64,000 nucleotides of DNA from Cenococcum geophilum (Eukaryota). The stretch is taken from positions 4,898,001-4,962,000 of the forward strand of contig CP158635.1 of the NCBI GenBank assembly GCA_050273025.1. Direction: 5' to 3'. The notes below the pieces were generated by a model. The model worked only from the letters and a program-made list of their open reading frames with translations, was not told where the DNA came from and ran no database searches. Below are positions 1 to 62,681 of this stretch, in pieces. Position 1 is the first letter of the stretch. Each line of letters begins with the position of its first letter. The translations under genes and the position numbers were made by a program.

Positions 1-1134
1 GCGTAAATAGCTTAATATCCTTTAACTACTGCGCTATAAACCTTCTATAGTAATTACAAAATCCTAAGAACAATCTTAACTATATAACGTTCTCTAGTTC
101 CTACTAATTTACTATAGCCTTAATCTTCTTTAGATCTATACTAAGTTAGCCTAGTTTAATAATAAATCTAATAAAATCGGTCTTCCTAGTAAAGAACTTA
201 TATTTCTTAATTGCTACTAGTATCTATTCTTCTTATAGTCTCTTTAAAACCTATTTAACGTATTCCCTATATTCTTCCTTAGTTATTAAGTAGATAATAA
301 TATCGTTAAAATATACTATAACAAATTTATCTAAGTATTCTCCTAATATATTATTAATACGCTTTTAGAATATTGCTAGTGCGTTTATAAGCCCGAATTA
401 TATAACTAATGGTTTATATAATCCTTCCTTTAACTTAAAGGCTGCCTTCTATTCGTTACCTTCCTTAATCCTAATCTAATAGTACGCCTATCTTAGATCT
501 ATCTTTATGAAGATTTACACATTACCTATCCTATCTTAGATTTCGCTAATTAAGGGTAAAGGATACCTATCCTTTTTAGTAATACTATTTAACTATCTAT
601 AGTTAATACACAGCCTTAGTTTACTATTCTTCTTTAGTACGAATAGTACTGGATAACCCGCTAATAACTGCGATAGTCTAATATATCCCTTTTATAGATT
701 TTCCTAAATAAACTCTTTTAACGCTCTACCCTCTTCTTTAGTAAGCTTATAGATTGGAAAGAACTTTAGACTTATTCCTAGTTCTAACTCTATTTTATAG
801 TCCTATACTATATATTCTAATAGCTTTTTACTTTCCGGTGACTATAGTTTCTTACTATACTTTTAGTATCTCTTTAGTATATAGCTTAGTCCTTTTTCTA
901 TTTCTTTATAGGTTGCTCCTACTTAGTACTATACCAACTTAGCTTATTATTATATCTTACGGCATTAAGTATCTCTAATATTAACCTAACCTATAATCCA
1001 ATTAATCCTTAAATTATATTCCTATAACCAAGGTATACCTAATACTGCCTCGTCCCGTCCTAATAGTAGGATATTAAAAGACATCTTAATTTATCTTTCT
1101 TTAATAGTTATCTAAATAGGTCCTGTTTTAAGAT

Positions 1135-7139: not shown

Positions 7140-10100
7140 AAGATTAATAATCCCTCCTCTATAGGTTATTAAATCTCCTAAAATCGTAACTAATAGGTAA
7201 GGTTGCTTCTTTTATCTATAAGGTAGTCCTATTCTCTTAACTACTACTAGTAAGATATAGTTTCGCATTACTCCACTATCTATTAGCGCTTTAAACTACT
7301 AATCTTACTAATTAATTTATAAATTTAGGTATTGTCCTTAAATTCCTTTAAGGGTCTAAGGCCTTACTACTAGCTCCCTCTAGTCCTATAGGCCTCTACT
7401 TTTCCTAACTATTGGCTATTTAATCCTAGTGCACTTAGCTTACTCTTAGGCCAATGCCTAGTTCGCTTTTTATCTTTAATATACTATAGACATATATTTT
7501 TTAGGCATTCCCACCACTATTATCTATCTAAGCATTCTTCCGTAAGAAATCTTCCTAGTTAAAGTACTAAACTTCCTTCCTCTTAGACCTCTATTGGATG
7601 CCATTTATATATATATTTAGCATTTTTATACTATTACTCGTCTATTATCTAGTATATCCTTATAGGGTATTTCCGATTCTTCTCTTTTAGATTCTTATAT
7701 ATTTTATATATATTGTCCACGCACGCAATCCATAATATCGTATAATGTGCTAGGTGCTTTAGGTTAACTCTTAGCTCGTCTTTATCCCTAAGTTTAAACC
7801 TTTATTATGCTAATCTAAACATTATAACTTTATTTATAGGTACTAAGATACGTCTTTTACTTCTCTAGTCCTCTAAACGTTCCTCTAGATCCTTTAACAT
7901 TATAATTAAGGCTTCTTTAATATGCGTTATAGCCTTCTCTATAATTAGGTAGTCCTAAATAACTTTTTTATCTAACTATATGTAGAAATCTTCCTACTTA
8001 TCGTTATGTCGTTGTCTATACCACTTTTAGTACAGCTGCTAAAGTATATATAGTCTATCCGTAAGGAAATATCTCTTTATTACTATATTATAACAGCCTT
8101 TAGTATATCGTTCCTCAAACCTAGTAGGAATCCCTAAATCCTCTTCTTATTCCAGTTTAGTAAGCTACTTAGCTCTTAGTATACCTACTCTTAGCCTATT
8201 AGTAATTCTTTATACTAGTACTCTATCCTTTATACGTCCCAATATACTAGATCTTTTATCTAGTTTCTATTCTTACTACGCGATAATTCTTTACCTAAAT
8301 TCTTCTATAGTTTCTTTTGGTTTATACCTTACGCTTTAATCCTTAAAGTCGTCTTACTTCTTAATCTTAGTATTAACTTTTTAATCTTTAGGCTAAACAC
8401 TATATTTCCCTAGTAAGTCTTCTAGGTCTATATATCTATCTCCTAATCCAATTACTATTTATACTGCAGATTCTTTAATCTATAAAGAAGCCCCTTACCT
8501 CTTATTTGTAGGTGTTCTAATTTATACTCTAAATTCTTAGTCCCTTAGATTCTTTAATCCTAAGCTTACTTTTATCTTAAGCTTAGCTCTAGCCTTAATC
8601 CAACTAGGCTTTACTAGTGTCCTTATCTCGTCTTAAGAGTTCTAGATCTCACTCATCTCGTCTTAAGAATCTTGTGCCGTTAGGAATTCTTATCCTAAGC
8701 TTATTCGTATGTCTTTAAACTAAGCCGCTGCTCTGCTCCATTGGTTTCTGTCCATTGTAGGTCCTTAAGCTTACCTTATCTTATCTTAAGAATCTTAAGC
8801 CTTTGGCCTTTTGCCTTTATTAAGTGCCAAAGTAGTTTACTATCCTACTTCTCTTACGTCTTATAAAGTAATAGACATTATATTTAGTGGGGTTTTAATC
8901 CCTACTAATATTCCTTATTCTATAATAGAATCATCCTCTACCTCTAGTATAACATCTCCAAGGTCTACTTACTCCCAGTAAGCGGCCCTTATTGCCTTAT
9001 CATTATAGAATGTTTTACCTAGGTCAAATTTATTATCCTTAATGTCCGATCTGCAAACTGGTTTGTTAGTTCCTCTACATCCTATAGGTGCTAGCTCTTA
9101 TAGCTAGTAGCTTACGCCGTACTTAGCGTCCTTATAAATTTGGCATGCGTTATTATAACAAAACGCAAAACTTTTAATTAAACATTCTTTTATTCCTTAT
9201 AGCATATTATCATCCCTTTATACGTATATATTGTCTATTAGTCTTATACCTTTTACTATATAGTAACTCTACCCACTTCTATAGTCTCTAATATAATAAC
9301 CCTATTTTCCGCAATTTATATAAGCTCCTTCTTTAAACTATTTCTCTTATTATAGAATCCGCCTAAATATCTTCTGCTGTTAAGATCCCTAATTTAGCCT
9401 CTACTCCTTAGACCTTTAATTACTTAATCCTTATCCTCTAGGTTTCTATAGTTTACTCCCTCTCTTATAGGCTTCTTTAGTACCACTTAAGTCTATTAGC
9501 TCTGCGCCATACCATAGTTTCTGACTTAGCTTTTATTATTGCGTACTCTGCACCTTATACAACTATAGAACTCTATCCTAGCCTTTTTTAGCCTATTCCC
9601 TTTAGTAGATCTAATTATTAATCTTAATCACCTAATCTATTAGTTCCCTTAGGGTATTCGCATCTTCTATTAGGATAATCACGTCCTAGACTTTAGCCTT
9701 AAGTCCCTATTTATACTATGCCATAAGCGCCCTATTATTCCACTCTACTTATATTACTAGTGTCTAGAACTATATTGTATACTTAATTACTAAAGTTTAT
9801 TACATAAGGTTCTGGAGTTTTCTTTCCGCTATAGTTATTTCTTCTAGATCTCTAAACATTTATATAAGTTGCTCTACAAATCCTTTCTAACTTAAGAATA
9901 TAAATCGCACGTCTTAGTTAGTGGTCATTATTCCGTTTACCTGTATCTCCATAAGGTAAGGTTTAAACTACTTAAGTACTTTTCCTAATAAGAATAGTCC
10001 TACGTAGGCTATCCAATCCACAGGTATAGGTAACTTTACTTCTTCCTATAAGACCTTAAAGTGCATCTACATAAGGAATCCTTTAAGCTTTAACCTCTCT

Positions 10101-10368
10101 CCTATAAATCTCTTAATTAATAGTAGCTTAATCTTTACTGCTCCTATCCCATTAAGTCTTTCTTCTAACACTATATTATTAGCTATTAGCTAGTTAACTA
10201 CTTCCTATAGCTATCCGACCGTTACAGGTTGCTATAAGTTAGTATCCGCCATACTAGTATCACCTCCTGTTCTTAAAGTAATTGCTGCCATTAATGGCGT
10301 TATAGTAGCTGCTTTTAGTGGCATATTATTTAACTTCTTATATTAATACTATAACCGGGTAGTAATTA

Positions 10369-10793
10369 TATAACGGAACCTTGTAGTAAAAACTACGATG
10401 GGTTCGTTAATAGGCTAGGTGTATAGAAAATGCAAATATAAAAGTCAACAACGTAATAATAACTGGTGGAGTAGTTGCCTAATAGATTAACTCTAATTAT
10501 ATTCTAAGAATTACTACAAGGAAGAAACTATCTAGGTAGGGACTGAGGGTCCTTAAATACACAACCATACTCCTAAGAAAGTTGTTGCTCTATCTGCTCT
10601 GTCTACTTTGCTCGCTCTGTAACAGATCTTATAGATTACATAGATTACACAGATTATATCACGTGACTCTGCTTACCATTCTTCGTCATATGGTTCTACG
10701 GGTTCCATCCTGGACCGTGCCTGCATTAACTAACTAGCTTCTTCCGACTCTTCTCTAAGTAGTTGTAATATCGTACTTAAAGCGTCCGTAATA
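10369..10793 (-). repeat. 5' LTR of Gypsy G1a (425 bp)
   Basis: TATAACGGAACC...CGTCCGTAATA (RIPped TG...CA ends); homologous at both ends to LTRs 15877-16300 and 23396-23819. Confidence 0.9.
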
Positions 10794-10970
10794 CACAATC
10801 GTTAAATATAAAGGTAACGAATTTGTAACACCAAGTAAAACTTAATCATGACTTATTTTAATATAGCCAATTGATTAATTTTAACGTCGCGTATGCAGAT
10901 ACAAGATATTATTATATAATTTTAACCTTTGGTGTATTTGATATATAAATATTAAATATAACAATACCCT

Positions 10971-12971
10971 TATTATAACGATACGCTCGGCCGTATAAAC
11001 CATATCGTACTAAAGAGTTTTTACTGTAGCTCTATATTAGTAATTAACTCCTATAAAGCGCTATATAAGCCTTTAATACCTGGACTATTAGCGTTACCTT
11101 TTATACGCTTAGTAGCTAATATAAAAGGCTTTAGGATCTTAATAAGCTACTCTACTTACTACTAATCTTTATTAGTAAGCGCGTCCTATAATAGATTATA
11201 GCTATTATTAGTGGGCTTCCTTTAAGCTAGTAGATATTTATTAATTGCTTTATAAAGAAGGTAGGTATAGCGGAGTATAAAATAGGTTAAATTCTACTAA
11301 ACGCCTTTATCCTTAATAAGCAGAAGCTCTACTTAATTAAAGAGCTCGTCTTTAATATAGGCCTTAGCCTAGTTCTTAGTAAAGTCCTTACGGCGTCTTA
11401 TTAATTATATAATATATTTAATAATGTTATAAACCTTACTTATAGAGCATCTCTACTATATAAGATTAAATTTAATATACTTGCTTGCGCTAATTATTAA
11501 GCGTTTAAGCTTGCTTACGCCTTTGCCGTATATTAAAGCCGTAATAATATAGTTAATAATATGGTTAACGCACCGAAGCTATTCCTTTTTAGCTACTAAT
11601 AGGCTTAATAAAAGGTAATTATAGAGCTTATTATTATTACTAGTGTTATTAGCTATTAAGGTGCCAAGCTTATAATTAGATTAACACTTTTAAATTGCTA
11701 ACGCTAGGGCCGTTGTTATATTTTTTAGTAAAGTATAATTCTTATAGTTATAGAAGGCCTAAAGATACTAATTAAAGCTTTCTACCTTTGTTAGTGATGG
11801 GCCACTATACTAAGTAGTAATATTCCATTTATAAATGTCTAGATATTATAGGTAAGATTAATTTTACTAAGTACGATAAGGAGGAGATTTTTTAATATTA
11901 ATATATTGCTATTTAAATGCGGTTTTAATCTAATTGTAATATAGGCGCCTTTATAAGATAGTCCTAAATCTAAAAACAGTTATAGGTTAGTAGAGCACGT
12001 ATATAAGGACTTATAGCTTAATATAAGGCAATGTTTTATAGAATTATCTAATTAATATAGGCTTAAATATAGCCAGGTACCTAAAACGGCTAGCGTTTAT
12101 AACTGCTAGCGGAAGTAAAAGCTTCTATACTTAGTAGTTATATTTTACTATTATAACTTTTAGGGTTAATAATAAGGTCATACTTTAACTTTAAATGGCC
12201 GTTAATATAATTATTACTATTAATTATAAGTAAAGCACCTAGTCTTTAAGCTAGATAGTAAAGCTTATATAGTTAGAGTCTTTTTTTACCTAAAGGACCG
12301 CCCTAAAAAAGGTCTACTTTATACTTCTATATTAGTAATATAGGAGTCTTACTTAATGGTGACCGCTTATTAATAACCCAGTATCTATATTTACCAGTAA
12401 GCTTACTAGGTAGAGATTATCCTAATTAATAGGAAAAATATAACTATAGTTCTAATTTGCTAGAGAAGGCTCTTATAATATAGAATTATCTTAATCGCCC
12501 AATTTGGTATTATTATTAATTAAAAGGGGAGAGGAAGCAGTTAATTTATAAACCTTGCGCGGTGCTAAAGGAGTTAAATAACGCGTAGATTGTAAATTAA
12601 ATAAGGAGGGAGTAGATAAAGAAGCTCTACTGCCTAGCTAACACATGAAATATAATATACGTTACATTTTATATAGGTAATAAAATAGTAAGCTTTAGCA
12701 CGGGTTTCGGCGCGCAATAGAGATATTAGGGAAAATGCTTTATTTACTATGGCTAAGCAAGAGATTCCTATGGGTTTCCCATTGCTTGGCGTATAATTAA
12801 CTAACCAGATCATCCGAATATCCTTAACTTCTACCAAAAGCTTCAACTTACTACCAAATCTTACCGCTAAGGCAGTGAGCTGTTAGCTAGCTGCAGTCTT
12901 ATAGCTGACTGCTTACATTAGCAGCCTCCTGGCAGCGAAGCTGACAGCGTCGCTGACTCTTGGTCACACTG
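10971..12971 (-). mobile_element. hAT-superfamily DNA transposon remnant (5' end and most of transposase; 3' end missing)
   Basis: Minus-strand RIPped motifs LRCVNHIIN (~11555-11580) and V(R)(W)N(S)TY (~11284-11303) match hAT RCxxH and RWNST; terminus reads CAGTGTGACC on the minus strand at 12971, with GCTGAC/GTCAGC-type subterminal repeats at 12870-12960. Left boundary approximate. Confidence 0.78.
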
Positions 12972-29400: not shown

Positions 29401-32400
29401 TAACTAGCGGGCGGCTTAATAACGGGTTACCTTATTAATTATATATAGTACTAGGCTGCCGTTAATATATATAATATCTACGTACACTAAGTAGTTAAAG
29501 TCAAGATCCTTATAAAGGGTAAACTTAAATCGGCCTAAGGAATATCCGTATTTCTAGTAGTAAAAGCAGTATTTAGTTAGGTGGTTAATTGCCTTCCTAT
29601 TAACGTCGTCATATCCAGAGCATTTAAGGACTCTATATAGCTTTTCAGCTAATAGGTAGCCAAAACGGCGGTACAGGCGGTAGATTTCTATACTGGTAAG
29701 GTAGTATAGGTTATAGTCAAAAGATTCCTAAATATACGTCCGTAGAGTCTCTCCCCATATAAGGAACGGGTGTCTAAATTATTGTGTAATTAGTAAGGTA
29801 ATATGCTTACTTCCTAGGGTAGTTACGGGGCCTATTAGGGTGTCCGTAATATTATTATTGTACACCTATAACCTATCTATGTCTATAAGACAGAGTAGGA
29901 AGGAGGTATCCGCTTTTACTATGTAGAAGTTAACTAGGCTAATAGAAGTCTTAACTTTAACTAATCTAATTAATGCGGTTAAGCCAATGCCGAATTAGAC
30001 GTTTACGGCCCCAGTTTACGTAATATTAATGTCCGTATTATTATTTATAGTGGTCCTATATACAAGGTATTATCTGTAGCCTACGGTAGACTTTTTAGAG
30101 GCACCTATATTAATTATAACGCCGTAGAATTCCTTAGGGGTATAGCGTTCTATAGTAATATATATAAATAGGTCCTACTTATAATTTATAACGTCTATAA
30201 TAGGGGTTCTTGCGGAATAGTTTTTAGGCGCAACTAAGTATATAAAGGAACGGTCGGCTAATACGGTCGTAATATTAAAGGCTTAGCCATCCGTAAAAGG
30301 TCTAAAAGTGGTTAAAAACGTCTCTAAGGTCTCCTATTCCTAGGCGTCTAAGTTAAAGTTAATTATAAGGGCTTCTATTAACTCATTAAAAGGCTCTTCC
30401 GCTTCCTCTCCTTTATATTCTAAAATAAATTAGTTAATACGGCTATTAAGTCTCTTCCTAGACTTATTACGTTCTTCCTAGGTATGCCTTATAGACTAAC
30501 ATTCTTCCTTACCACATATAAAGCACTTCTAGCTAGTTTGTCTACGGGGGTATATTTTCGTATAGAAGTTATTATAGGGGTTGCGGGTAGGACCTAGTCG
30601 ATGCGGGTACTGCTAGCAGTAGCGGCGGTCCGTAAAGTAGACGTCTAAGTCTATTTACGGATATTAAATATCCGCAATAAAGGCTTAAGTGCTACCTAGT
30701 AGATTTAAAACTTTATACGTTATAATAGAGGAGCGTAAATCATTAATAAGGCCAGTTAAGGTATCTACAGGCTTATAATAGGCGTACTTATAGGGTTCTA
30801 CTTCCTAGCAGGCCGTAATAAGTTTATTATATAGGAAGTCGTCTATTTAAAGCTTAGTATTAAGGCCGTACTATAGGTGCCAAAGGTCTTTAATAAGAAT
30901 TTAAAGGCACTCTATAGTCGATTTTTCAGTATTCTTATTAATTACGGTCCGTAGCTTAGTCGCATTCTATTAGGTAAGAATATCACGCTTATATTCCGGT
31001 CCTTTAAAGTAGTTATATATAGCTTCGCATAGCTTATTAAAGGGAACACCAAGGGGGTTACTCTTAAGGTTAGTATAGTAGTGGTCAAATACTAGGCCGC
31101 GCAGTATAGTAGAGTAGGCTTAGCTAAATTCCTATTTAGGAATATCAGCCTTCTAGCAGAGGTCCATAAAAATAGTTAGTTTAAAGTTAAAGTTGTTGTT
31201 TTTACCGCTATACTTAAATTTATCGGTATAGAGCTTAGCCAGGTTAGCTAGCTCCTTACTATAGGTCTTTACTTAGGTAGTTTACGGATCTATAACTTAA
31301 GCAATAGGAGGGTTTTAGTCCATATTTTAGTTTACGGGGGTATTATAGTCCATAATTTGGGTTACGGTAGTATTATAGTCCGTAACTTAAGTATTAGGTA
31401 TACTTTAGCCAGTAAGATTAATTCTAATACCACTTAGGTTTATAGAACAAATTTGGTTAAATAGGTCAGCTATAAGGCTAAAGATTCTATTAAGTTTAAA
31501 GGAGGTAAAGGGGTCGCTAGTTTTAATATAATCTAAGATCTACTCTTTAGTCCATTCCGTTTGGTCCTCCTTATATAGTATATTATATAGAGACCGTACA
31601 ACAGTAACTTATTTGTCCCTTTTAACCCATACGCCTTAGTAACGTAAAAGGGTTTATAGGTTACGGGTAGTAGTAGGGTTATAAGCCTTAAAAATAGCTT
31701 CCATAAAGTCCGCAAAGTCTTCCTTATATTACTCCCACAGGTCGTTATTTATAAGCTTAAAATATCCGTATTTAAGGATTTTATATTTAATATAGTTATT
31801 AACGTCAGTTATAGACGTAAGGTCAACTCCTTAGCTCTATTTCTCTTAACCTTTATTAATTTGCTTACTTATGTCTGCTATACTATATAATATAGTACAT
31901 AGCGGGTAAAAAAGGTCTTATAGTAGTCCGTAAAGGCGGTTAATAGGTCCGTAACAGTTTGTAGGAGGGTAGGTAGTTTCCGTAAGGTCTTATAACGGTC
32001 TATAAAGGTAATTAGCAGGTCCGTAGTGGTTTATAAGAGGGTAAAAGGTTCCGTAAAGGTCTATATTCGCGTCTATAAACTTCTAATAAACTATATTAAG
32101 ACTTAAATAAGTATATAGAGTTAGTAATAGGTCTGTAATCCCCAACTTCTAACCTTCTAGCAGGTCGTACTAGGAGTCTAAACGGGTGGTCACTATTAAG
32201 TATCGCTCGGGGGAAGGTGTTAAGTAATTGCTAATCTATACGCGCTTACTAATTAGTGTTCATACTAATTTAATAGCACGAGTAAGCCATATCCCAGGGC
32301 ACGAAATACGTATAGTATCGTATGCTCTTTAGGATGGTGGTGACTATCGATTCTATTAAGGTAGACTACGTAGTCTATATACTAACGCACCTCCCCCCTA

Positions 32401-43918: not shown

Positions 43919-46900
43919 AATAACTGGAGACGATTTATAAACGAGCATACTTCTAACCTAAGCCTCTCCTATAATAAGGGCTTGTGGGCTATAGCGAAAT
44001 AGGTAAAGAAAAAGGTAGGGCGACTAGCAGAAGATCTATACCTACTACCCCTATAAAGAGTAGGGGAATTATAGGCTACTAATAATAACAATAAGAAGGT
44101 AAAGATCTTTATAGAAAGGTTCTTCCCCTAACCAGCTGCAGTAGACCTTAGTAATATTATAGGTAAAGCACTAGTAACTTGCCTGCGGGTTAACAGTAAT
44201 ATAATAACAGAGGAAATGGCTAAAACTATTAGCCGCCTTTTAAATAATATAGTACTAGGTTTAGATGGGATCCTAAATAAGGCCTTAAAGACCTATAGAC
44301 CACTTATAGCACCCTGGCTTGCAGATATAGCTAGAGTATACTTTACTATAGGCTACTACCTACAACTTAGAAGATCTATAACGATAGTTGTCCTATAAAA
44401 AGAAGGTAAAGTAGATTACTTAATTCTAGGAAGCTACTGCCTTATTGCCTTAGAAAACACCCTTAGCAAAATCTTAGAAAAGGTAATAGCGGACTATATA
44501 GCGGATATAGCTAAGGAACACGCCCTACTACTATAGAGCTAAATAGGGGCAAGAAAGAACCGCTTAATACTATTAGCACTTACGCTACTTGCTACTACTA
44601 TTAAATCTACATAGGCGATATAAAGGGACTTTATAGTATTAATGCTTAGCCTAAATATTAGTGGAGCCTAGATATTAGTGGCGCCTATAATAACGTACCT
44701 CACGAGCGTCTTCTATATATCCTTAGGGCAAAAGGCTTCCTAGAGTGAATTGTATAATTTATTTAAGGGTTTATAGGTTAGAAAGAAATATTACTAGTTT
44801 TTAGCGGATACTAGAGCCCCCCTATTATAGTTGCAACAGGAATACTATAAGGATTACCCCTCTCGCCTATACTCTTCCTTTTCTTTATAAGCAACTTGCT
44901 TAACTCCTTTAAAGAAGGGGCGACCTAGGGGATAGGCTTTATTAATAATATAAACCTAATTATATACGGGCTATTAGCCGTAAAAAATTGCAGAATGCTA
45001 GAGAAAGCTTATAATACCTATATAGAATGGGTAAGATAATATAGAGTCTAATTCTTACTAGAGAAATACTAGCTAATCCATTTTATAAGAAAACGCAACT
45101 AATCTGTAGATCTTTAGTATATAATCTATATTTAAGGCTTTAGGGGTTAACTAGTTTAGGGCCTATGGGTATTAGGAGTATGGGTAGATAGTAAGCTCTG
45201 GTGGAGCGTATATGCGGCGTAAGTGGCCTATAAGGGCTAAGTATAGTATATTATATTATCCAGGATCGTTAATTCTATATAGGGCCTATGCTTTTAGAGG
45301 TTACACCTACTATATATAGCAGTTATCCGGCTAACCATAACATATAGGTCTAGTATTTAGGCCATTAGAGAATCTGAGAAAGGCCCCCCTAAGTCACTCT
45401 TTAAACTACTCTAAAAGGTCTAAATAGCCTACCTTTAGAGTATAATAGGCGGATATAAGCGAACGGCCATAGCACTGCTTAAGAAGGAAGCCAATATTCC
45501 CCCCCTATAACTATATATTAAAGCCGCTGCAATATAAAGGGCCTAAAATAAATGCAACTCTAACGTTATAAAGTATATTAAGACATGCCTAAATAAACTA
45601 TAGAGGGACCCTAGGGCGCCCTATAGGAGAATAAACCAATAACCCTAAAGTAGGGAAGATATATTAGAGAAACAAGTAAAGAAAGCAGAAGAAGAATAGT
45701 GCTGCTTTAGGGCCCAGGCCTATATAGAGGAGAAAGGGAGACGTATAAGAGGCTAGTAAAGATAATAGTAAGAGAGAGAAAGGAGTTAAAGTAGAGTATA
45801 AAAGAACGCTAGGAAACTATCTACCGTAATAAAACACTGGTTAGACTAACGCTAGAGAGGTATATAGGAGTTAAAGGTATAAAGGCTAACTAAGGCAAGA
45901 GGAACCTAAGCTGTAGTATAGTTAATACTATAGGGGGTAAACACTCTAGGGCTCCGAGAAGGCCTAATAAAGGCAGAAAATATAATAGCGACACTTTTAA
46001 GAACAGGAATAATAGGACTAAAAGACTGGCTCTACTAGGTAGGTGTCCTAGTAGGTAGCCTAAGATATAAATATAGCTGGCTAAGACAGACACCAAAACA
46101 CGTAATACTGTTATGCCCCCTACACACTAACTAAGAAGTAATGCTTTTAGTAGCTAGCATAGAGAACTATAATATACTACTCTTAATATAAAAAGGCCTT
46201 AAGGCGGTTACCTAGTGGCTTATTAGCTAAAATATACTAAACTAGTTCCGGGTTATAAGGGAAATGGTAATAAAGGGTAGGGGGGTAAGCAATGGGCGCC
46301 CCCTGATAACTCTATAGTAGTAGAGTAAAGTTTACAATACTAGCGCGTCCGTAGGCTTATTACGGCAGTAGTAGTTCCTAAGGAGGTTAAAAAGTAAGGT
46401 AGTAGGAGCACTATAGGTGACTCGCAGGCGCCTTATAAGCGAGTCCTAAAAGGTAGGGAGATGGATTATAGGGTTTTCTTAAGTAGAGTTTTCTCCCTAT
46501 ATATATATAAGGAGTAGTCCGCGTGGGCCTAATAGGGATCCGAATCGGACGTTAAGTAATGAATTATTATTATTAATAAACTACTAAAATACTAACTATA
46601 TAACTATAAGATTATACTTAAAGAAGAAATACAGCCTGGATTTAGACCCTTATAAAAAACATCTTAAAATAAACCCTAAGTAATATAGAGGTATCTAAAT
46701 AAGAACCTAAGTAAAGGATTTATTAGAGCAAGCTCTTCGCCTACAGCTATATTTATAATCTTTATTAAAAAACCTAGCGGTAGTCTATACTTTTATATAG
46801 ACTACTAAGCTCTTAACGCCATTACTATTAAGAAATAGTATTCGATCCCGTTAATATAAAAGACACTAAACTAACTAAGTATAGCCCGCTACTATATAAA

Positions 46901-47242
46901 GCTTAATATTATTTCCATGTTTAACCGCCTCTATATTATAAAAGGAGATAAATAGCTTACTATATTTTGTACCCGATATAGATTATTTAAATACTTAGTA
47001 ATACTATTTAGCCTTATAAACGCCCTAAGTTTGTTTTAATATTATATAAATAATACCCTATATCCCTACCTAGACATCTTCTATACTGCTTATATTAATA
47101 ACATTTTAATATATAGCAATAACCTAACTAAATACCGGAAATACGTTAGCCTTATTTTATAAGCCCTATATAGAGCTAGTCTATAATTAGATATAGATAA
47201 ATATAAATTTTATAAAATAGAAGTCCTATACTTTAGACTTCT

Positions 47243-49839: not shown

Positions 49840-52800
49840 TGTATAATTACAGCACCTATTATACCAAACGCGTGCTTACGCGTTCGGTACACCAGGTACG
49901 CGTTTACGCGTTCAGTGCACCAACCACTCGCTTACGCGTCTAGTGCACTTATAAAGCACTAACTAATTAGGGGGGAGGTGCATCAGTATATAGACTACGT
50001 AGTCTGCTTTATACAATTAACAGTTACCATCCAAACAAGTATACAATACTACATGTATTTCGTGCCCGTAGATACAACTCACTCATACTATTAAGTTAGT
50101 ACGAATACTAATTAGTAAGCGCGCATAGATTAGTAATTACTTAATACCTCCCCCCAAGTGATACATACGACAGCGACTACCCGTTTAGACTCCTAGTACG
50201 ACCTACTAGAAGGTTGGAAGTTAGGGATTACGGACTTATCTCTAACTCTGTATACTTATTTAAGTCTTAGTACAGTTTACCAAAAGTTATAAATGCGAAT
50301 ACAAACCTATACGGAACCCCTATCCTTAACCCCCTTAAACCTTAAACCTCTTTGGACCTTTTATAGAAACCCCCTACCCTCCTGCGAACCATTACGAACT
50401 TATTAATTAATTTTACGGACCGTTATAAGACCTCCCCCACCCGTTATAAGCTGCTACCACCCGCTACGCACCACACTACACTATAGTATGGCAGACATCA
50501 GTAAGCAAGTCAGCGAAGGTCAAAAGAAGTGGAGATAAGGTATCGACGTTACGTCTATAAACGATGTTAACGACTACATTAGCTTTAAAATCCTTAAATA
50601 CAGATACTTTAAGCTTATAAATGATAACCTATAGGAGTAATATAAGGAAGACTTTGCGGACTTTACAGAAGCTATTTTTAAGGCTTATAACCCTACTACC
50701 ATCCGTAACCTATAAACCCTTTTATATTACTAAGGCGTATAGGTTAAAAGGGACAAACGAGTCACTATTGCACGGTCTCTATACGACATACTACGTGAAG
50801 AGGACCAAACGGAATGGACTAAAGAGTAGATCTTAGATTACATTAAAACCAATGACCTCTTTACCTCCTTTAAACTTAACAGAATTTCTAGCCTTATAGC
50901 TAACCCATTTAACTAAATTTGTTCCACAAACCTAAGTGGCATTAGAATTAATCTTACTAGCTAAAGTATACCTAATACTTAAGTTACGGACTATAATACC
51001 CCCGTAACCTAAATTACGGACCATAATACCCCTATAAACCAAAATACAGACTAAATTACCCCCGTTATTTAAGTCACAGATCCATAAGCTATATATCCGC
51101 AAGCCACAGATCTATAAATTATAGATCCGCAACCCACCTAAGTAAAGACCTATGGTAAGGAGCTAGCTAACCTAGCCAAGCTCTATACTGACGAATCCAA
51201 GTATAGCGGTAAAAACGATAACTTTAACTTTAAACTTACTATCTTTACGGACCTCTGTCGGAAGGCTAATATTCCTAAATAGGAATTCAGCCAAGCCTAC
51301 TCTACTATGCTGCGCGGCCTAGCACTTAACCACTACTACACTAACCTTAAGAGTAACCCCCTTAGTGTTCCCTTTAATAAGCTATATAAAGCTACGCGTA
51401 ACTACTTTAAAGGACCGGAATATAAACGTGATATTCTTACCTAATAGAATGCGACTAAGCTACGGACCGTAATTAACAAGAATACTAAAAAATCGACTAT
51501 AGAGTGCCTGCAAATTCTCATTAAAGACCTTTGGCACCTATAGCACGGCCTTAATACCAAGCTTTAAACAGACGACTTCCTATATAATAAACTTATTACA
51601 GCCTACTAGGAAGTAGAGCCCTACAAGTACGCCTACTACAAGCCTACAGATACCTTAGCTGGCCTCATTAATGACCTACGCTCCTCTATTGTAACGTATG
51701 AAGTCTTAAACCCACTAGGCAGCACTTAAGCCTTTATTGCGGATATTTAATATCCATAAACAGACTTAGACGTCTACTTTACGGACCGCCGCTACCGCTA
51801 GCAGCACCTGTACCGACTAAGTCCCACCCGTAACCCCCATAGCAACCCCTATACAAAAACATACCCCCACAGACAAACCAGCCAGAAGTGCTTCATATGC
51901 GGTAAGGAAGGATATTAGTCTATAAGGCATACCTGGGAAGAACGTAACAAGTCTAGAAAGAGACTTAATAGCTATATTAACTAGTTCATTTTAGAATACG
52001 AAGGAGAGGAAGCAGAAGAGCCCCCTAATAAGTTAATAGAAGCCCTTATAATTAACTTTAACTCAGACGCTTAGGAATAAGAGACCTTAGAGACATTCCT
52101 AACTACTTTTAGACCTTTTATAGACAGCTAAGCCTTTAATATTACGACCGTATTAGCTAACCGTTCCTTTATACACTCAGTTACGCCCAAAAACTATTCC
52201 ATAAGTACCCCCGTTATGGATGTTATAGATTATAAGCAGGACCTATTTACATATATCACCATAGAACGCTATACCCCCAAGGAATTCTACGGTGTTATAA
52301 TCGACATAGGTACCTCTAAGAAGTCTACCATAGGCTATAGACAATACCTTATATATAAGACCACCACAAATAATAATACGGACATTGATATTACGCAAAC
52401 TGGGGCCATAAACATCCAATTCGGCATCGGCTTAACCGCATTAATTAGATTAGTTAAAGTTAAGACTCTAATTAGCCTAGTTAACTTCCACGTAGTAAAA
52501 GCGGATACCCCCTTCCTACTCTATCTTATAGACATGGATAGGTTATAGGTATACTACAATAATGTTACGGACACCCTAATTAGCCCCGCAACTACCCTAG
52601 GAAGTAAGTATATTACCCTGCCAATTATATAATGATTTAGACACCCGTTCCTTATATAGGGAGAGACTTTACGGACCTATATTTAGGAATCTTTCGACTA
52701 TAGCCTATGCTACCTTACTAATACGGAGATCCACCGCCTATACCGCCGTTTCGGCCACCCATTAGCTAAAAAGCTGTATAGAGTCCTTAAACGCTCTAAA

Positions 52801-56202: not shown

Positions 56203-57971
56203 CTAAGTAACCTAGTTAACAATATATACCCTTTCTTTCCATTTTCTTACCTCCTTTCCTTATATAACGTCTTAGCTTTATTATATAGTTTATACATATA
56301 GCCTAATAATATCTACTTTGTTATATATTATCGTCGCTTATACTTACTCTATAATTATTACTACCTTCTTTTTACTTTTTTATTAATTGTATATATAGAC
56401 GTTTAGTATTTTAGAGGCTCTAAAGAACGATTTATAGTCGGCTTTAAGGACCTTTCTTTAACGTCTATATTAGTTAAGCTGCTAGTAAAGACTATACTAT
56501 TACCTATAGCCTCCCTAAAGGAAATAATAGGGTCCTTCTTCTTTATCTACTTCCTTATAGTTTGATTAACTATACGCGATATAATATCCGCTACTTATTA
56601 TTGGTCCTCTTACCTATTTAGAGCCTATTGCTTCTACCACTACTACTTCTACTACTATTACTCCTGCTACTGCCTAATTTAAAGCTTTATAATGCTGACT
56701 TTAAATATTACCTTCTTTATATTTTTGCCCTTTATATTTAGTTAGTTCTAAAGCTTAAACGGCTAAAAAGGAGAAGGCTTAATGGGTAGTAGAGGCTTAA
56801 GGGGAGGCTTATTAGAAGGAGGTTTTAATTAAGCAGGCGGATAGAGGAGGGCCTATTTAGGTTAACGTTAGCGACGCTACTTTAGATTATAATCGCTATG
56901 CAAAGGCTCTAGATCTGTAAAGTCGTGCAGTAGTTAAGGTTCTATTTTTATACGCTCTAAAAGCTTTAGTAGCTTAGGCTTACTTAGTAAAGGCTTTATT
57001 AGATTAACTTAATTAAGGCCTTAAAGCACCTACTATTATATAAGTAATAACCTAGCACTAATATTAATCTATATATTTAAGCGCCTTTTAATTACATTAA
57101 TAGTTAGTAGCGCCTTTATAATAGTTATTACCTCCTTTATAGTAAATAACCTCTTTAATATAACGTGGATTTTGTTTAATCCAAGCTTAAATCCACTATT
57201 CCTTAAGCTCCCGCTAAGCCTTCCTTTATACTCGCTTAGCTTATACTTTAGTTTTTAGCGCTTCTTTTTATATAGTAACTTATTTAAAATAGGCCTTAAC
57301 TAGTTTAATTATATTTAAATTAAGTAAATTACTAGGTTAAAGAAGGCGCTAAAGGCCTACTATATTAAATTTAATTAATTAATAATATAATTTATAAAAT
57401 AGATCTTTATTCTCTTAAACAATAGTATTTAGGTAGTTAATTTAGTACTTAATATTAAAAGGAATAAGAATAGAAAGGAGGATAGTGGTAAGATAGCGAT
57501 ACTAATTAATGCCCCTATTCTTCCCATTTCTTTAAAAGGCGCTATTTTCCTTGGTTATATGGAAATTAAGGCTTTCTATCTAGCTTATTGTAAAGCCTAA
57601 GTTGTTATATACTAGTAGTAAGCTACTAAGCTATATAAAGCTCTAGCTTAATTACTTTATTAATTTTTTAAAGCTTAATTTTTAAAGCCTTCTTCTTTAG
57701 TATAGTTTTAGGCCTCTATATCTAGTAGGGAGCCTTCTAATTATATAAGAACGCACCCTAAAATATAAACTTAGTAGCTTTAGAAAATTAAGGTTAAATT
57801 ACCTACTTACTTACCTTCTCTTTAGCTAAACGCTAGAGCTTATATCCGCCCCTTTTATAGCCTAAAATAATACTAGTTTTATTACTCTAGATAATAGTCT
57901 TCTAATTGTTAATTATTTAATACTTATATTATAAGGCGAACTAAAGGCGAGCTTCCTTTATCTCTTATAAG

Positions 57972-58100
57972 TGTTAGGTAACAAAGTCACCTCGCCTATA
58001 TATATTGTTCCGCATAGCCATGCCTAGCATTAAGCCAGTCACTCGCTTACCTTTTAGGGTTTGTGCCGTGGCTAAGTGGTACGGAGCTTATTATTTTATA
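57972..58100 (-). repeat. Solo LTR, 129 bp, same family as 47243-47371 (inverted)
   Basis: Reverse complement of 47243-47371; TSD ATAAG at 57967-57971 and 58101-58105. Confidence 0.9.
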
Positions 58101-58376
58101 ATAAGAGGTAAGGCTTCTTATAGGCTTTATCTTTTAATATCTATAGCGTTAAAAAAACTCACTAGATAGTTTAAGTAAAGTAGCCGCATTTAGCGGTAAT
58201 ATAGACGTAGGACTTCTCTTTACTAAATTAATTAGTAATAACTTTCTTAAGAATTTACCGTTTAAACTTATAGGTAATTTTAACCTTTAATCTAGTGTAA
58301 GGAGTATTAATAATATAGCTTTTAAGAATAAGAGAATAAGAGGAAAAGTCCTAGCTATAACTACGGGCCTTTTTAA

Positions 58377-59387
58377 TAATAATAATAGATTTAATTTACC
58401 GTCCGACCCGGTCCCCCTAATGGGTCCACGCAGACTAATTCCTATGGTAAAAACTTAATATATATACTAAGAAAAACCCATTTTTTGGGTAAACAAAAAA
58501 CCCCTAAGGGAAACGTAAGAGGTAATACTTCTAGATAGCATTTGTACTACATTAATGGGGGGAAAAATACCGTTAGGTTACTACTTAGAGACCCCTAAGG
58601 AAGGTGTCTTAAATGCCTGTCTTGCCCTGTCTGCCTTTTAAACCACTTTCCCTATTTATTATTGCCTATATGGAATTATATACCTGCCCTTCCCCTACTC
58701 CGCCCTATATATATACACATATACTACTTACAGCTTCCCTACTTATAGCATAATCTAATCTTATTATTATACCTTCTAGTATAATCTATTGCCCTCCTAT
58801 ATAATGTACTTATATCTAGTCCTATATAACCTTTTTTTTAAACTAAAATAACGGGACAGTAATTGGTGCTAGGTATTTTCTCCTAGGGCCTTAACCTAGG
58901 TCCTTTGTAATATAAAGGAGGATATATACCGCATGCGGTAGGTTTAAGCTATTAGGTAATAATAAAGGCGGGTAAATAAGAGGCCTTAAAAGGTAATAGA
59001 CGAGAGGCTTTTAAAAGGTAGGTAGATAAAGAGGCTTATTGCGGGCTTTAGCCTGCAAGGCGTACGTATATACTGTATAGGGTTATGCAGTATAGCGTGC
59101 CATACTGTATAGAAGGAGGACGCCGATTTAGATGCCGTGATTTAAGCAGGTTAACCGTATATAAAGACGAGTTGGTCGTGTTCCTAAAGCCTTGTTGGGG
59201 CTTACCCTCCCAACAGAAACTTCTTTCTTCGCGATCACCCGTCGCAGTGCTAGCGGTGCGCAGCCATATGGACGTCTCTGCGTTTGCTCTAGTAGTCTAT
59301 TGACACGATCCTAACGGAATATTAATAGTACTGCCAGGTTCCTAGGCTCCACCGCGTGGAGGTATAGAGGCCGATTTTATAAAGCCC
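58377..59387 (-). mobile_element. SINE-like non-autonomous retroposon, ~1011 bp, with 5' HDV-like ribozyme and Tad1-LINE-like 3' end
   Basis: TSD TACGGGCCTTTTTAA at 58362-58376 and 59388-59402 (single copy at the equivalent site ~62048-62061 of the related Tc1); (ATT)4 tail; 3' ~70 nt similar to LINE end 46510-46573; no recognisable RT/EN coding remnants. Confidence 0.85.
59274..59387 (-). ncRNA. HDV-like (nested double-pseudoknot) self-cleaving ribozyme, RIP-mutated copy
   Basis: Minus strand: P1 GGGCTTT / J ATAAAATCG / P2 GCCTCTAT / P3 ACC / L3 TCCACGC / P3' GGT / P1' GGAGCCT / AG GAAC / P4 CTGGCAGT-A-CTATTAATAT-TCC GTTA GGA-TC-GTGTCAATAG-ACTACTAG / AG CAAAC / P2' GCAGAGAC. All pairing defects are C>T or G>A changes, most in RIP CpA/TpG context. 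Confidence 0.82.
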
Positions 59388-59690
59388 TACGGGCCTTTTT
59401 AAAGAGATACTATAGTATTTGGCGCTTAATTTCGGTAATACGTTTAATATATTAAAGGGTTACTCCTATAGCCTTTATAGCGAGGGCAAGCTAATAAAAG
59501 CCTATAGTTAGTAAAGCAATATTTAAGCTAGAAGAGTCCTTACTAGTAATTTTAGAAAGCATTAAGGGTATAATAGAAGTAATAAGGCTGCAAAAGTTAT
59601 TCTACCGTTAGAATTTTTGGGCGGTTAGTAGGTAGTGCACTAAACTTCCTAATTAGGAAGGTGCAAGAGCTTTTATTAGGGATATCCGTA

Positions 59691-62366
59691 TAGAGGTCGC
59701 TAATATAGCAGAATATACCTTCCTAATTAAGAAGTTTGGCTTACCGCCCACTAAAATATTATAAATTCTATTACTAGTGGCCTAATATATATAGATAAAG
59801 CTTTAAATAAAAGGCAATATATAGGCGATTAATTGATTGGTTAGTAAGCTAGCTATTTAAAAGGTAATAATAACTATAGGGGCGCAGCTTCCTGCTCTGT
59901 AATGACTTGGCGGCGTCCTCTACTGCTTAGGCAGAAGCCTTTATAGGCTTAATCTACTGCCTTAATCCCGCCTTTTTGGCAATCTTTTATATAGAAGTTT
60001 GGTGTAATAAAGGTTCTAAAGGAGGCTCTACTAAAGGCTCTGCTAAAGGCTCTATAGGAAGCTCTATAGCGATTTGCCCACTAGTAGAGCCTTTAGTAGA
60101 ACTTTTTCCTTAATCTTTCCTTATCTACTTCCTTATAGGTTAATTAATTGTAAGCTACCTAATATCTACTACTTTATAATGTTGATCTTCCTGCCTATTT
60201 TAAGCCTGCTGTTCCGGCTACTGCTGCTTCTGCTACTACCCCTACTGCTGCCCCTACTGCTGCCCCTACTGCTGCCCCTGCTGCTGCCCCTACTGCTGCC
60301 CAACTTAAGGCTCTATAAAGCTGACTTTAAACGCCGGCTTCTTCGAGTTTCTGCCCTTTGTATTTGGTCGGTTTTAGATTAACTAAGGCTAGGGAGGAGG
60401 AGGAGGATTTGTAGGTAGTAGAGGCTTTGGAGGAGCCTTATAGGAGGAAGCTTTTAATTTAGTAGGCGGCTGAAGTAGTGCCTATTTAGCTTAACGTCGT
60501 CGGCGGACCTTTAGATCTTATTTGTTGTGTAGAGGCTCTAAGTTAACTAGTTCGTTCGGTAGATAAGGGCCTATTTATATATAGTGTGGGAGCTTTAGTA
60601 GCTAAGGCTTTCTAAGCAGAGGCTCGTCCGGATTAATACGGTTAAGGCTTAAAAGTACCTGCTATCGCATATAATTAATTACTTGGTAGCGATATTGATC
60701 TATCTATTTAAGCGCCTTCTAATCTCTTGCATTATTAGTAGCGCCTTTATAATATTTGTTGCCTCCTCTATAGCGAATAACCTCTTAAATATAATGTGGA
60801 ATTCGTTCTATCTAAGCTTAAATCCGCTATCATTTAAGCTTATCTTATACCGTCTACTAAGCTTACTTAGCTTCTGCTTAGTTCTTTAATGTGCCCTTTT
60901 TTATAGTAACTCGTTTAAGGTAGAACTAGCATAGCTCTATTATATTTAGATTAGGTAAATTGCCCGGCCAAAGTAGACGCTAAAGGCCTACTACGTTAAA
61001 GTAGATCTACTAGTGTTTTAATAAATAAGCGGGAGCTTTATCCTCTTAGATAATAGTATTTAGGCGATTAATCTAGCACTTAATTATTATAGCGACTCTG
61101 TTAATCAAGGTATAAGCGCCGTAATGAACGTATACAAGCCTATATAATTGGAATATCTATAGACCCGGATATTAAGATAAGGAGTAAAAGGTGGAAAAGG
61201 ACACGTTTATATATATATGCCAAGGCTTAAGCGAGCCCCCTAACTAGATCCGTTACGGTGCCGTAATATTAATTATAAATGGAATAGGGATTAGCAGAAG
61301 AATTTTGGTAAGATAGCAATACTAATTAATACTACCTTTTTTTAAGTTACGCTTAAAAGCGCTATTCTCCTTAGTAAGACGGAAGCTTAGTTTCCTTCCT
61401 AGTTTATTACGAAGGCCTAGTTGTCTTATACCGGTAGTAAGCTCCTATATATTATAAAGCTCTAGCTCTATTACCTTATTAATCTTCTTAAGCTCTAGCT
61501 TTAACGCTTTTTTCTTAGCTATAGTTTTGGGCCTCTATATATAGTAGGGAGCCTTCTAATTATATAAAAAGGCGCCCTAGAATATAAACTCTGTAGCGCC
61601 TTTAAATTGAGGTTAAATAGATAATTTATTAACCTTTTCTTTAGCTAATCGCTAGAGCTTATATCCGCCTCTTCTCTAGCCTAGAATAACGCCCGTTTTA
61701 TTACTCTAGATAGCATTCTTCTAATCCTTAATTATCTAATTCTAGTATTATAAGGCAAATTAAAGGCAAGCCTCTTTTATTACTAGTAAGAGGTAGGGCT
61801 TTTTTATAGGCTTTATCTTCCGATATCTATAACGTCAAAGGACTCGCCAAACTGTTTAGGCAAAGCAGCCGCACTCTGCAGCAATATAGGCGCAGGACTT
61901 CTCTCTGCTATATTAATTGGAGGTAACTTTTTTAAGGATTCGTTGTTTAAATAGGCGGGTAATTTTAACTTTTAGCCTAGTGCGTAGAGCGTTAATAATA
62001 TAGCCGTTGAGGATTAGAGGATTGGTAGTAGGATACCAGCCACAATTAAAGGCCTTTTTAAATAGATATTGCAGTGATCGATGCTTAATTTAGGTGATAT
62101 TTTGAATTTTCTTAAGGGTTGCTCCTATGGCCTTTATGGCTAGGGCCTGGGCCCTAGTCGCAAGCTAATAAAAGCCCATAGTTAGCACAGTAAAATTCAA
62201 GCTTTGGTGGTTCTTGCAAGCAGTTTTAGAGGAAATTGCAGCTATTTGGTGGTGTTAGTGTCGGTGTGATTGAAGTATTCTGCCGTCAGAATATTTAGGC
62301 GGTCAGTGGGCGGTCAGCCAAACTGCCTAATCGGGAAGGTGCAAGAATATATGTTAGCGACCTCCG
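59691..62366 (-). mobile_element. Tc1/mariner DD34E DNA transposon, copy b, full length 2676 bp, RIP-inactivated
   Basis: ~63-bp imperfect TIRs ((C)(G)GAGGTCGCTAA...TTAGCGACCTCCG) flanked by TA at 59689-59690 and 62367-62368; minus-strand RIPped motifs (W)S(D)(E)TG ~61700, F(W)GAF ~61575, EDKAPA ~61040 and WPGN(S)P(D)LN(M)IE ~60935-60970, with 34 residues counted between D and E. Confidence 0.9.
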
Positions 62367-62681
62367 TAGACAAAATTTAATTTAATACGATTAACTGCTT
62401 ATATCTAATATTTTATATAATATAGCTATAACGTTATTATTTAATGCAATAGATAGAGAAGCTAAAGAGGCTGGGCAAGGCATACAGGCTTTGCCTAGTT
62501 TGCTCCATTCCACCAATACACATACGAGTTTTTCGCCATAAAATAATTAAAGCACTCACTTGATTTAGAAATTGCTGCAAGCACTCCAGGCGTATAACGT
62601 AAAGAAGAGAGCATTACGGCGAGCCTCACCAGATCACGAAGGCTTTCACACACCTCTAGCACATCTTTTTCCATCATACTC

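Follow-up and report, generated by a model that had tools for sequence, protein, structure and literature searches.

RESULTS

An interrupted repeat marks the insertion of a ~1-kb retroelement

We analysed 64,000 nt of the Cenococcum geophilum genome (GenBank assembly GCA_050273025.1, contig CP158635.1, positions 4,898,001 to 4,962,000 of the forward strand; hereafter the window). Near its end the window carries, on the minus strand, a short retroelement that begins with a fold resembling the self-cleaving ribozyme of hepatitis delta virus (HDV). The element, which is heavily altered by repeat-induced point mutation (RIP), splits an older repeat, and the insertion is framed by the following features.

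58377..59387, minus strand: complete copy, ~1.01 kb, of a short interspersed nuclear element (SINE)-like, non-autonomous retroelement lacking long terminal repeats (non-LTR); non-coding, heavily RIP-mutated, splitting the older repeat
59387..59402, no strand: target-site duplication beside the 5' end of the element, plus strand CTACGGGCCTTTTTAA, from the junction alignment with the empty paralogous site at ~62040-62065
58361..58376, no strand: target-site duplication beside the 3' tail of the element, plus strand CTACGGGCCTTTTTAA, 16 of 16 bases identical
56539..59690 (56539-58376 and 59392-59690), no strand: copy 1 of the older, RIP-mutated repeat hosting the insertion, from self-BLAST
60117-62368, no strand: copy 2 of the older repeat, uninterrupted and hence the empty site, from self-BLAST, with 67-76% identity between the copies

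Self-BLAST revealed that a 1,011-bp insertion (58377-59387) interrupts copy 1 of the older repeat, and that the same repeat is contiguous in copy 2. Read on the minus strand, the element starts with 59387, the predicted first nucleotide of the ribozyme (G1); this base is also a letter of the duplication, so that the two overlap by 1 nt. At its 3' end the element has an (ATT)n tail, visible on the plus strand as a TAA run at 58374-58385. Since the last TAA of the duplication copy at 58361..58376 also fits this tail repeat, the true duplication is 13-16 nt long. There is no open reading frame of 60 or more amino acids on the minus strand of 58377-59387. Being short and non-coding, with duplications of variable length, a simple-repeat tail and a 3' end shared with a long interspersed nuclear element (LINE), the element is a non-autonomous non-LTR retroelement.

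Two side observations concern the insertion itself. One contig of sequencing run X7 joins 58360 to 59387 without the element, through 16 shared letters; it represents either an empty-site allele in the sample or the paralogous uninterrupted repeat aligned at 80% likeness. Inside the element, 59079-59116 (plus strand) forms a near-perfect palindromic hairpin, which matches Rfam mir-471 (21.3 bits, E 0.1; gathering score 80) and is probably a mere inverted repeat in the variable middle of the element. This mir-471 match and one to Bacilli-1, both weak and far below the gathering score, were taken for chance.

The first 114 nt of the element have the parts of an HDV-like ribozyme

An earlier examination of the window from its letters alone (the sequence-only reading) had placed an HDV-like fold on the minus strand from 59387 to 59274. 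Its base positions and letters are correct, including an intact P3 and L3 and a J4/2 that reads CAAAC with its C at 59286. The parts are as follows, all on the minus strand.

59274..59387: HDV-like ribozyme fold, RIP-mutated, 114 nt, at the 5' end of the ~1-kb element
59387-59381: P1 5' strand, GGGCTTT
59380-59372: J1/2, ATAAAATCG
59371-59364: P2 5' strand, GCCTCTAT
59363-59361: P3 5' strand, ACC
59360-59354: L3, TCCACGC
59353-59351: P3 3' strand, GGT
59350-59344: P1 3' strand, GGAGCCT
59343-59342: P1.1 partners, reading AGG AAC together with J1/4
59341-59338: J1/4, after the P1.1 partners
59337-59289: P4, a hairpin of ~50 nt
59288-59282: J4/2, AG CAAAC, with the candidate catalytic C at 59286
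59281-59274: P2 3' strand, GCAGAGAC

Without any reversion of RIP, P1 of this copy (GGGCTTT/GGAGCCT) is paired at seven of seven positions, three of them G.U, and both P3 (ACC/GGT) and L3 (TCCACGC) are intact. The P4 helices are nearly or largely intact, six of the eight P2 pairs are present, and one of the two P1.1 pairs remains (59343 is A). A model of the family (R1) scores the window ribozyme at 135 bits (E 2e-35), the sole strong match in a window that is AT-rich, with a GC fraction of 0.26-0.46 in most 1-kb bins. The stretch 59358-59344 of the core (columns 36-50 of the alignment A2 described below) can also form a local 6-bp hairpin, CTCCAC(GCG)GTGGAG, which excludes P1 and P3 and could act as a folding trap or switch.

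Natural relatives retain the fold without reversion

One metagenome scan with the unchanged 19-nt core returned at least 120 loci; among the matches listed, 113 are relatives of the element and seven are unrelated GC-rich DNA. Ninety relatives with a complete ribozyme passed our filter, 17 were cut by contig ends, and six variants were dropped (L011, L044, L048, L053, L080 and L105). The 90 complete ribozymes and the window copy make up the 91 rows of alignment A2, in which P3, L3 and most of the 3' strand of P1 are invariant by construction, the core of the scan being fixed.

The majority sequence of the family reads, in order, GGGCTTC, ATGAAATCG, GCCTCTGC, ACC, TCCACGC, GGT, GGAGCCC, GGG, AACC, P4, AG CAAAC and GCAGAGAC. 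Its helices follow the order of the nested double pseudoknot: P1 5', P2 5', P3 5', L3, P3 3', P1 3', P1.1 and J1/4, P4, J4/2 and P2 3'. Many of the listed relatives carry little RIP damage, and the fold is present in them as they stand. The proposal that the ancestor had an HDV-like fold is therefore supported, in that little-mutated natural copies hold all core features and the fold starts at the first base of a retroelement.

We tested the pseudoknotted fold on A2 (40 pairs in six helices, 91 sequences). Of 3,638 cells, 90.0% were paired, against 34.9-38.8% when the 3' partners were slid by one to three columns. Pairing amounted to 91.5% in P1, 85.7% in P2, 100% in P3, 70.2% in P1.1, and 90.5% and 98.9% in the two helices of P4. 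Cells changed on both sides of a pair numbered 72, compared with a mean of 37.3 in shuffled alignments, and none of 500 shuffles reached 72. Of the ten pairs on which these changes fall, eight belong to the main helix of P4, and its distal hairpin and P1 contribute one each; columns 77-96, for instance, are AU in 66 rows and GC in 21, and columns 62-109 are GC in 46 and AU in 21. In our reading of the L077 row, five P4 pairs are altered on both sides and in both directions, which one-way RIP does not explain.

The positions expected to be rigid are well kept in the family. P1 has 7 bp, and its 3' strand follows directly upon that of P3. At the candidate catalytic position of J4/2 (column 114), 81 of 90 copies have C and the other nine T, a change of the RIP type; columns 115, 116 and 117 are A in 88, 89 and 89 of 90, with T at column 115 in two, and an extra C at the inner end of P2 (column 118) is found in 90 of 90. 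P1.1 pairs as C-G in 77 of 91 rows at columns 38-55 and in 50 of 91 at columns 39-54, its breaks being G>A and thus of the RIP type, and the GGG after P1 is conserved. L3, UCCACGC, has U at position 1 and G at position 6, an invariance due to the design of the search. The cleavage-site pair (columns 9-53) is G-C in 64 of 91 rows, G.U through C>T in 15, and something else in 12. By our own criteria, all core features are kept together in 29 of the 90 copies and not in the window copy.

Some relatives depart from this pattern at their 5' side. In L045, L099, L105 and L113 the DNA that precedes the ribozyme is conserved from one locus to the next, and the 5' strand of P1 is a variant one (containing GACGACTC); in this lineage the ribozyme does not lie at a variable insertion junction, and the element may have been duplicated within a larger repeat. 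L045 contains two elements in the same orientation ~1,044 nt apart, the second with its own duplication. In L044, unrelated sequence stands in place of everything 5' of P3, with loss of the 5' strands of P1 and P2, and this copy looks like a 5'-truncated or chimeric insertion.

The element begins at the predicted cleavage site

Upstream of G1 the relatives are unrelated in sequence: no base exceeds 40% in columns 3-7, and column 9 is G in 78 of 90. Among the listed relatives 19 copies, of 0.84-1.07 kb, are complete at both ends, and their duplications measure 11-19 nt. In 11 of these 19, G1 either directly adjoins the duplication or is part of it. Eight of them (L056, L065, L061, L007, L013, L032, L042 and L045) have an exact duplication of 11-16 nt whose last base immediately precedes G1, and the same holds for L048 once its J1/2, shorter by 2 nt, is allowed for. 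The duplications of L025 and L062 (17 and 19 nt) extend two bases into the GG. In the remaining eight copies the junction is blurred by RIP, by variation of the tail or by the end of a contig. The element boundary and the duplications thus place the putative cleavage site at G1, and an RNA 5' end lying exactly 3' of the predicted scissile bond is the product expected of a 5' HDV-like ribozyme.

The duplications of the 11 complete metagenome copies are AT-rich and often start with a TAATA- or TTATTA-like sequence that also fits the (ATT)n tail. This suggests priming through microhomology between tail and target, with a preference for AT-rich (RIP-mutated) DNA.

The elements fall into subfamilies that have the first ~200 nt and the last ~270 nt in common and differ in the middle. 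The window element aligns over its full length (query positions 1-1011) with L025, L035, L036 and L065, and nearly so (from position 1-2 to 1008-1011) with L062, L067, L071, L073 and L076. No reverse transcriptase gene lies downstream of the ribozyme in the metagenome loci; the open reading frames found there in long loci match DUF7704, ABC_trans_N or nothing. Pieces resembling reverse transcriptase occur among these loci only in L029 and L064, unlinked to the ribozyme.

Descriptors, shuffled sequence and Rfam

How readily such a topology arises by chance was gauged with a descriptor comprising G1, a 7-bp P1, a 3-bp P3, a 7-nt L3, a 2-bp P1.1, a 6-bp P2, a P4 stem and a C in J4/2. When it was made tolerant of RIP, reading T as C and A as G, it matched 186 sites in the 64-kb window, the candidate included, and 188 in block-shuffled sequence. 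Reverting RIP, the argument of the sequence-only reading, therefore proves nothing alone, and independent evidence is needed.

A strict native descriptor matched 34 of the 120 listed core sites and 12 other places in 697,546 nt, with 29 matches in the reversed and 12 in the block-shuffled sequence; the chance of such a fold at one given base is therefore ~2-4e-5. Its single match in the window, at 31156 (plus strand), lies in plain AT-rich DNA. A relaxed native descriptor was unspecific, with 57 and 66 matches on the two strands, and the conserved C.A mismatch in P4 kept it from recognising the true site. A degenerate core pattern gave seven matches in the window at two or fewer mismatches (2.89 expected), with the candidate itself the only one at zero, and the family model R1 found no second ribozyme copy in the 64 kb.

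In the E-value mode of Rfam, the best ribozyme family was drz-agam-1 (RF01787), with 16.8 bits for the window copy and 17.6 for the intact relative L052, the gathering score being 37. Since the intact copy scores no better than the RIP-mutated one, RIP is not the reason why the Rfam models miss the family, and the family lies outside those models whether or not it is RIP-mutated. The expectation that standard searches would miss such copies was right in its outcome and wrong in the cause that it gave.

Element and LINE have a common 3' end

A LINE on the opposite strand of the window ends in the same way as the element.

58377..58450, minus strand: 3' terminal module of the element with its (ATT)n tail, homologous to the LINE 3' end at 46500-46575
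44003..46575, plus strand: RIP-degraded LINE (reverse transcriptase region and 3' end), whose read-through translation has non-LTR reverse transcriptase motifs
46563-46574, plus strand: (ATT)4 tail at the end of the LINE

Self-BLAST aligned 58370-58445 with 46579-46507 at 75% identity over 76 bp (E 2.8e-6), and the homology between the window element and the LINE (~75 nt plus tail) was also aligned with three metagenome copies (alignment A3). The reverse transcriptase of the LINE is recognized by Pfam RVT_1 (E 3.6e-8, ~44641-45079) within a reverse-transcriptase-like translation that extends over 44003-45259; the 5' end of the LINE was not found in the window. A 3' end common to the two is the classical relation between a non-autonomous element and a LINE. 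The LINE at 44003..46575 is therefore a candidate autonomous partner that may supply the reverse transcriptase, and the element would have been mobilised by that LINE lineage.

RIP damage and the state of the window copy

Compared with the majority of ten copies of the same subfamily (60% majority rule), the window element has 26 C>T and 22 G>A changes (48 in all), 19 reverse transitions, which are sites where the subfamily majority is itself mutated, and one transversion. The context is that of RIP: 22 of the 26 C>T changes stand before A and 15 of the 22 G>A changes after T (37 in CpA/TpG). Eight changes fall within the ribozyme by this count, and nine by direct comparison with L052 and L017, intact copies of the same subfamily (59381, 59378, 59365, 59364, 59344, 59343, 59323, 59320 and 59291).

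The sequence-only reading had restored the fold through ten reversions, holding that each damaged base is predicted by its partner strand. Six of them match the majority of the 90 relatives: 59381, 59364 and 59291 (T from C) and 59365, 59343 and 59323 (A from G). The other four do not. All 90 relatives have A at 59275, and the C.A mismatch in P2 is therefore ancestral. At 59293, 77 of the 90 have A; at 59321, 73 have T; and at 59382 they divide into 46 with T and 43 with C. The partner-strand rule was thus wrong for four of the ten reversions, and two real changes were overlooked. One is 59344 (T from C), where C stands in 73 of 90 relatives and in ~94% of the depth of DNA run X1, so that the ancestral cleavage-site pair was G1-C and not the G1.U wobble that had been assumed. 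The other, also in the named helices, is 59320 (A from G), where G is found in 83 of 90.

In the window copy one of the two P1.1 pairs is lost and the two P2 pairs beside P3 are weakened. The calculated energy of the nested P2, P3 and P4 is -12.1 kcal/mol, compared with -28.1 in L052 and L017. P1 and P3 together reach -7.3 against -7.4 for the competing core hairpin, whereas intact copies of the same subfamily have -11.5 against -7.4. By these calculations the RIP changes would weaken P1, P2 and P4 and let the hairpin tie with P1 and P3. Because of the lost P1.1 pair, the weakened P2, the lower stability and this tie, the window copy is probably inactive.

Copy number and transcription

Contigs from three DNA runs, together with the raw reads of an RNA run (X21) chosen by its species label, were aligned to 58300-59460 at 80% likeness. 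In X1 the summed contig depth is ~250-500 in the flanks and ~8,000-12,000 over 59275-59391 and 58378-58455, with ~800-3,500 in most of the middle of the element and sharp edges at 58378 and 59391. This jump inside the element identifies a high-copy family. The letter of the intact ribozyme makes up 13,578 of 14,410 of the X1 depth at 59344 (~94%), 8,135 of 11,534 at 59364 and 8,883 of 11,534 at 59365; at 59381 it is in the minority, 146 of 1,099.

The RNA reads carry the intact letter in 121 of 122 cases at 59344, in 68 of 68 at both 59364 and 59365, and in nine of nine at 59381. Of the 4,202 reads aligned to this region, 3,426 are less than 90% alike to it and therefore derive from other copies; no reads of this run fall in the flanks. 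Intact relatives of the element are transcribed. The stranded reads are ~50-100 times more abundant on one strand (743 versus 12.9 in the bin 59275-59313), and the transcript is the sense strand of the element if the library is of the usual dUTP kind.

DISCUSSION

The significance of the fold at 59274..59387 rests on its family, on its coincidence with the element boundary and on the pattern of conservation. Taking these together, we consider it likely that the 5' module of the family is a self-cleaving HDV-like ribozyme. We infer that the module cleaves itself and that this cleavage sets the point at which the element begins. Transcription would start either in the flanking DNA, reading through into the element, or in the element's own 5' region. 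The double pseudoknot formed by P1, P1.1, P2, P3 and P4 would then cut the transcript just 5' of G1, leaving RNAs with a uniform 5' end free of flanking sequence. The LINE reverse transcriptase could recognise the shared 3' module and (ATT)n tail and carry out target-primed reverse transcription at a new site, which would generate the target-site duplication of 11-19 nt that abuts G1. Finally, RIP would mutate the repeated copies.

Several observations weigh against self-cleavage. Covariation among the copies, which the sequence-only reading had proposed as a check, supports only P4 and not the catalytic core: P3 never changes, the few changes in the almost invariant P2 are confined to one of its strands, and in P1 just one double change occurs. 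The scan, which demanded the exact core, leaves no room for variation in the 3' strand of P1, in P3 or in L3. Furthermore, in a genome subject to RIP, double transitions from C-G to U-A can arise without selection. J4/2 has five nucleotides. A C.A mismatch in P2 (columns 27-125, window 59370/59275) is unpaired in 91 of 91 rows, and another in P4 (columns 64-107, window 59333/59293) in 68 of 91, a minority subfamily having C-G or U-A there. These conserved mismatches may be functional, for instance as a protonated C.A pair or a motif, or the helix registers may need revision. The RNAalifold consensus prefers the 6-bp hairpin, in which L3 and the 5' strand of P3 pair with the 3' strands of P3 and P1, over P1 and P3. 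At gathering thresholds Rfam finds nothing in the whole window, and 20 relatives searched together gave no match to an HDV-like family at E<=1. Neither a ribozyme nor a match to R1 was found on the candidate LINE, whose 5' end was not located, and no cluster of RNA starts is seen at G1 among the read ends listed.

The consensus hairpin, the confinement of covariation to P4 and Rfam scores below significance would also fit a 5' module that is a structured RNA or DNA that does not cleave itself and serves another function, such as internal promoter activity, binding of the retrotransposition machinery or a role in stability; its topology would then be a by-product of the hairpin and a P4-like stem. 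A non-catalytic role is conceivable, given that the 5' module of L1Tc in trypanosomes combines a promoter with a ribozyme (PMC3383444). We regard this explanation as unlikely. All HDV features occur in canonical order and spacing, namely a 7-bp P1 from the first base of the element, a 3-bp P3, a 7-nt L3 with two Cs able to pair with the GG after P1, a P2 of 6-8 bp that bridges ~85 nt, and a conserved C-N-A-A in J4/2, and a chance of ~2-4e-5 for such a fold at a given base speaks against a by-product. In intact copies P1 and P3 (-11.5 to -14.4) outweigh the competing hairpin, which is weaker at -7.4. Moreover, ribozyme activity is proven for related fungal variants that have this G-C pair at their cleavage site (PMC5640933).

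A further explanation would derive the head of the element from a tRNA, 5S or 7SL gene transcribed by RNA polymerase III, with the fold as an incidental feature. The element does resemble classical SINEs in being short, non-coding and high-copy and in sharing only its 3' end with a LINE; however, ARAGORN detects no tRNA-like gene in 58300-59500, and the E-value mode of Rfam finds no tRNA, 5S or 7SL in the window copy or in 21 relatives, which makes such an origin very improbable. Pure chance, by which a RIP-permissive reading of T/C and A/G would draw an HDV-like fold almost anywhere in AT-rich DNA, as the unspecific RIP-tolerant and relaxed descriptors show it can, deserves practically no credence here and is refuted by the at least 113 natural relatives that hold the fold without reversion and whose similarity starts at G1, by the fold test, and by a family model that finds exactly one strong site in the window.

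Comparison with known systems

The likely ribozyme can be set beside several published systems. Li and Breaker (2017; PMC5640933) described 230 representatives of 'HDV variants' from 26 fungal species and showed cleavage in vitro for examples from Penicillium chrysogenum and Aspergillus niger. Typical of their variants are a C-G pair at the cleavage site, a P4 in part replaced by an E-loop motif, and one nucleotide more, as a rule C, between P2 and P3; they are credited with 'widely variable gene associations', and the text in question contains no word beginning with 'transpos'. The present family resembles them in being fungal, many-copy nested pseudoknots with a G-C/C-G cleavage-site pair where a looser purine-pyrimidine pair is usual, and both were missed by earlier descriptors and by Rfam. 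The extra C of the present family (column 118, or column 33 if 33-119 is drawn unpaired) may correspond to that of the variants, as compared by description only. By the same kind of comparison, no clear E-loop is seen here: P4 is long and mostly Watson-Crick with one conserved C.A, and has the mismatch at columns 64-107 followed by AG(N)UA opposite GAC. In contrast to the variable gene associations of the variants, the ribozyme here forms the 5' end of a retroelement with target-site duplications.

L1TcRz is an HDV-like ribozyme comprising the first 77 nt of L1Tc and of the non-autonomous NARTc in Trypanosoma cruzi, whose cleavage at +1 was proposed to separate the RNA of the element from co-transcripts and to give it a defined 5' end (PMC3185411). 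In both systems the ribozyme makes up the first bases of a non-LTR-type element or of a short non-coding derivative. They differ in kingdom and sequence, and whereas the L1Tc LINE and the short element both carry the ribozyme, here the ~1-kb elements alone were found to carry it, and they have just their 3' end in common with a LINE. The activity of L1TcRz has been demonstrated, while the present family is known here from its sequence.

The non-LTR element R2 and the short elements derived from it by internal deletion likewise start with an HDV-like fold, and a 3' end is needed for target-primed reverse transcription (PMC3774820; PMC3414825). In R2 ribozymes the C and A of J4/2 and the G of L3 are conserved, and variable 5' junctions have been explained by microhomology (PMC3774820); a G.U pair in L3 is a feature of HDV-like ribozymes (PMC3386971). 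The rigid positions of the present family are of the same kinds (the catalytic C, the A in J4/2 and the G in L3), and its 1-2-nt overlaps of the duplication with G1-G2 recall the microhomology junctions of R2. Unlike R2, which is specific for 28S rDNA and co-transcribed by RNA polymerase I, the present elements are dispersed in AT-rich DNA; P4, often absent from R2, is ~50 nt long here, and J1/4 has about 4 nt instead of 0-2.

With drz-agam-1 of Anopheles gambiae (RF01787) the family aligns in P1 5', J1/2 (AAAAUC), P3, L3 and P1 3'. It scores below the gathering threshold and is not a member by the Rfam criterion, and the model mis-assigns P2 and P4 because P4 is much longer here.

Elements known to carry a 5' ribozyme include R2 and its deletion derivatives, L1Tc/NARTc, Baggins, RTE and other animal LINEs and SINEs (PMC6765202, PMC3185411, PMC3774820, PMC3414825). 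The element is thus a fungal example of a known arrangement of ribozyme and retroelement, and not a new kind of element. None of the publications found ties a fungal HDV-like ribozyme to a retroelement; the nearest is PMC3185411, where a single line notes that a Penicillium sequence is compatible with an HDV fold. Earlier surveys of HDV-like ribozymes may already list the family or ribozymes on fungal retroelements.

Implications for fungal HDV-type ribozymes

Our findings tie a fungal HDV-type ribozyme fold to a defined mobile element, one that is flanked by target-site duplications, ends in a LINE-like 3' tail, is present in many copies and has intact copies that are transcribed. If the module cleaves as predicted, the strategy of a ribozyme-defined 5' end, known from R2, L1Tc/NARTc and other animal and protist non-LTR elements, would extend to a fungal SINE-like family. 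This would also supply a biological context for the fungal HDV variants, which were published without one. The many-copy variants with variable gene associations could more generally be 5'-processing modules of dispersed, still-transcribed SINE-like retroelements that borrow the reverse transcriptase of (ATT)n-tailed LINEs and are inactivated by RIP copy by copy, a generalisation to which we give even odds. If it is true, the integrity of the ribozyme would mark those copies that are still able to make a correct 5' end. On the practical side, the reversal of RIP by eye is no evidence alone, and less-mutated natural relatives, taken from metagenomes and sequencing reads, test such claims directly.

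Other repeats in the window

Two matches of the degenerate core pattern that were considered as second ribozyme copies, at 52484 (plus strand) and 29911 (minus strand), were rejected as copies of another repeat, which the pattern fits only in part. This repeat, RIP-mutated and unrelated to the ribozyme, lies at 52400-52700 (plus strand) and 29700-30000 (minus strand) in opposite orientations. At 47136-47172 (minus strand) a short sequence resembles the first ~20 nt of the element (TAGGGCTTATAAAATAAGGC); it scores 9.2 bits with R1 (E 1.6) and is either the remnant of a deleted copy or a chance likeness.

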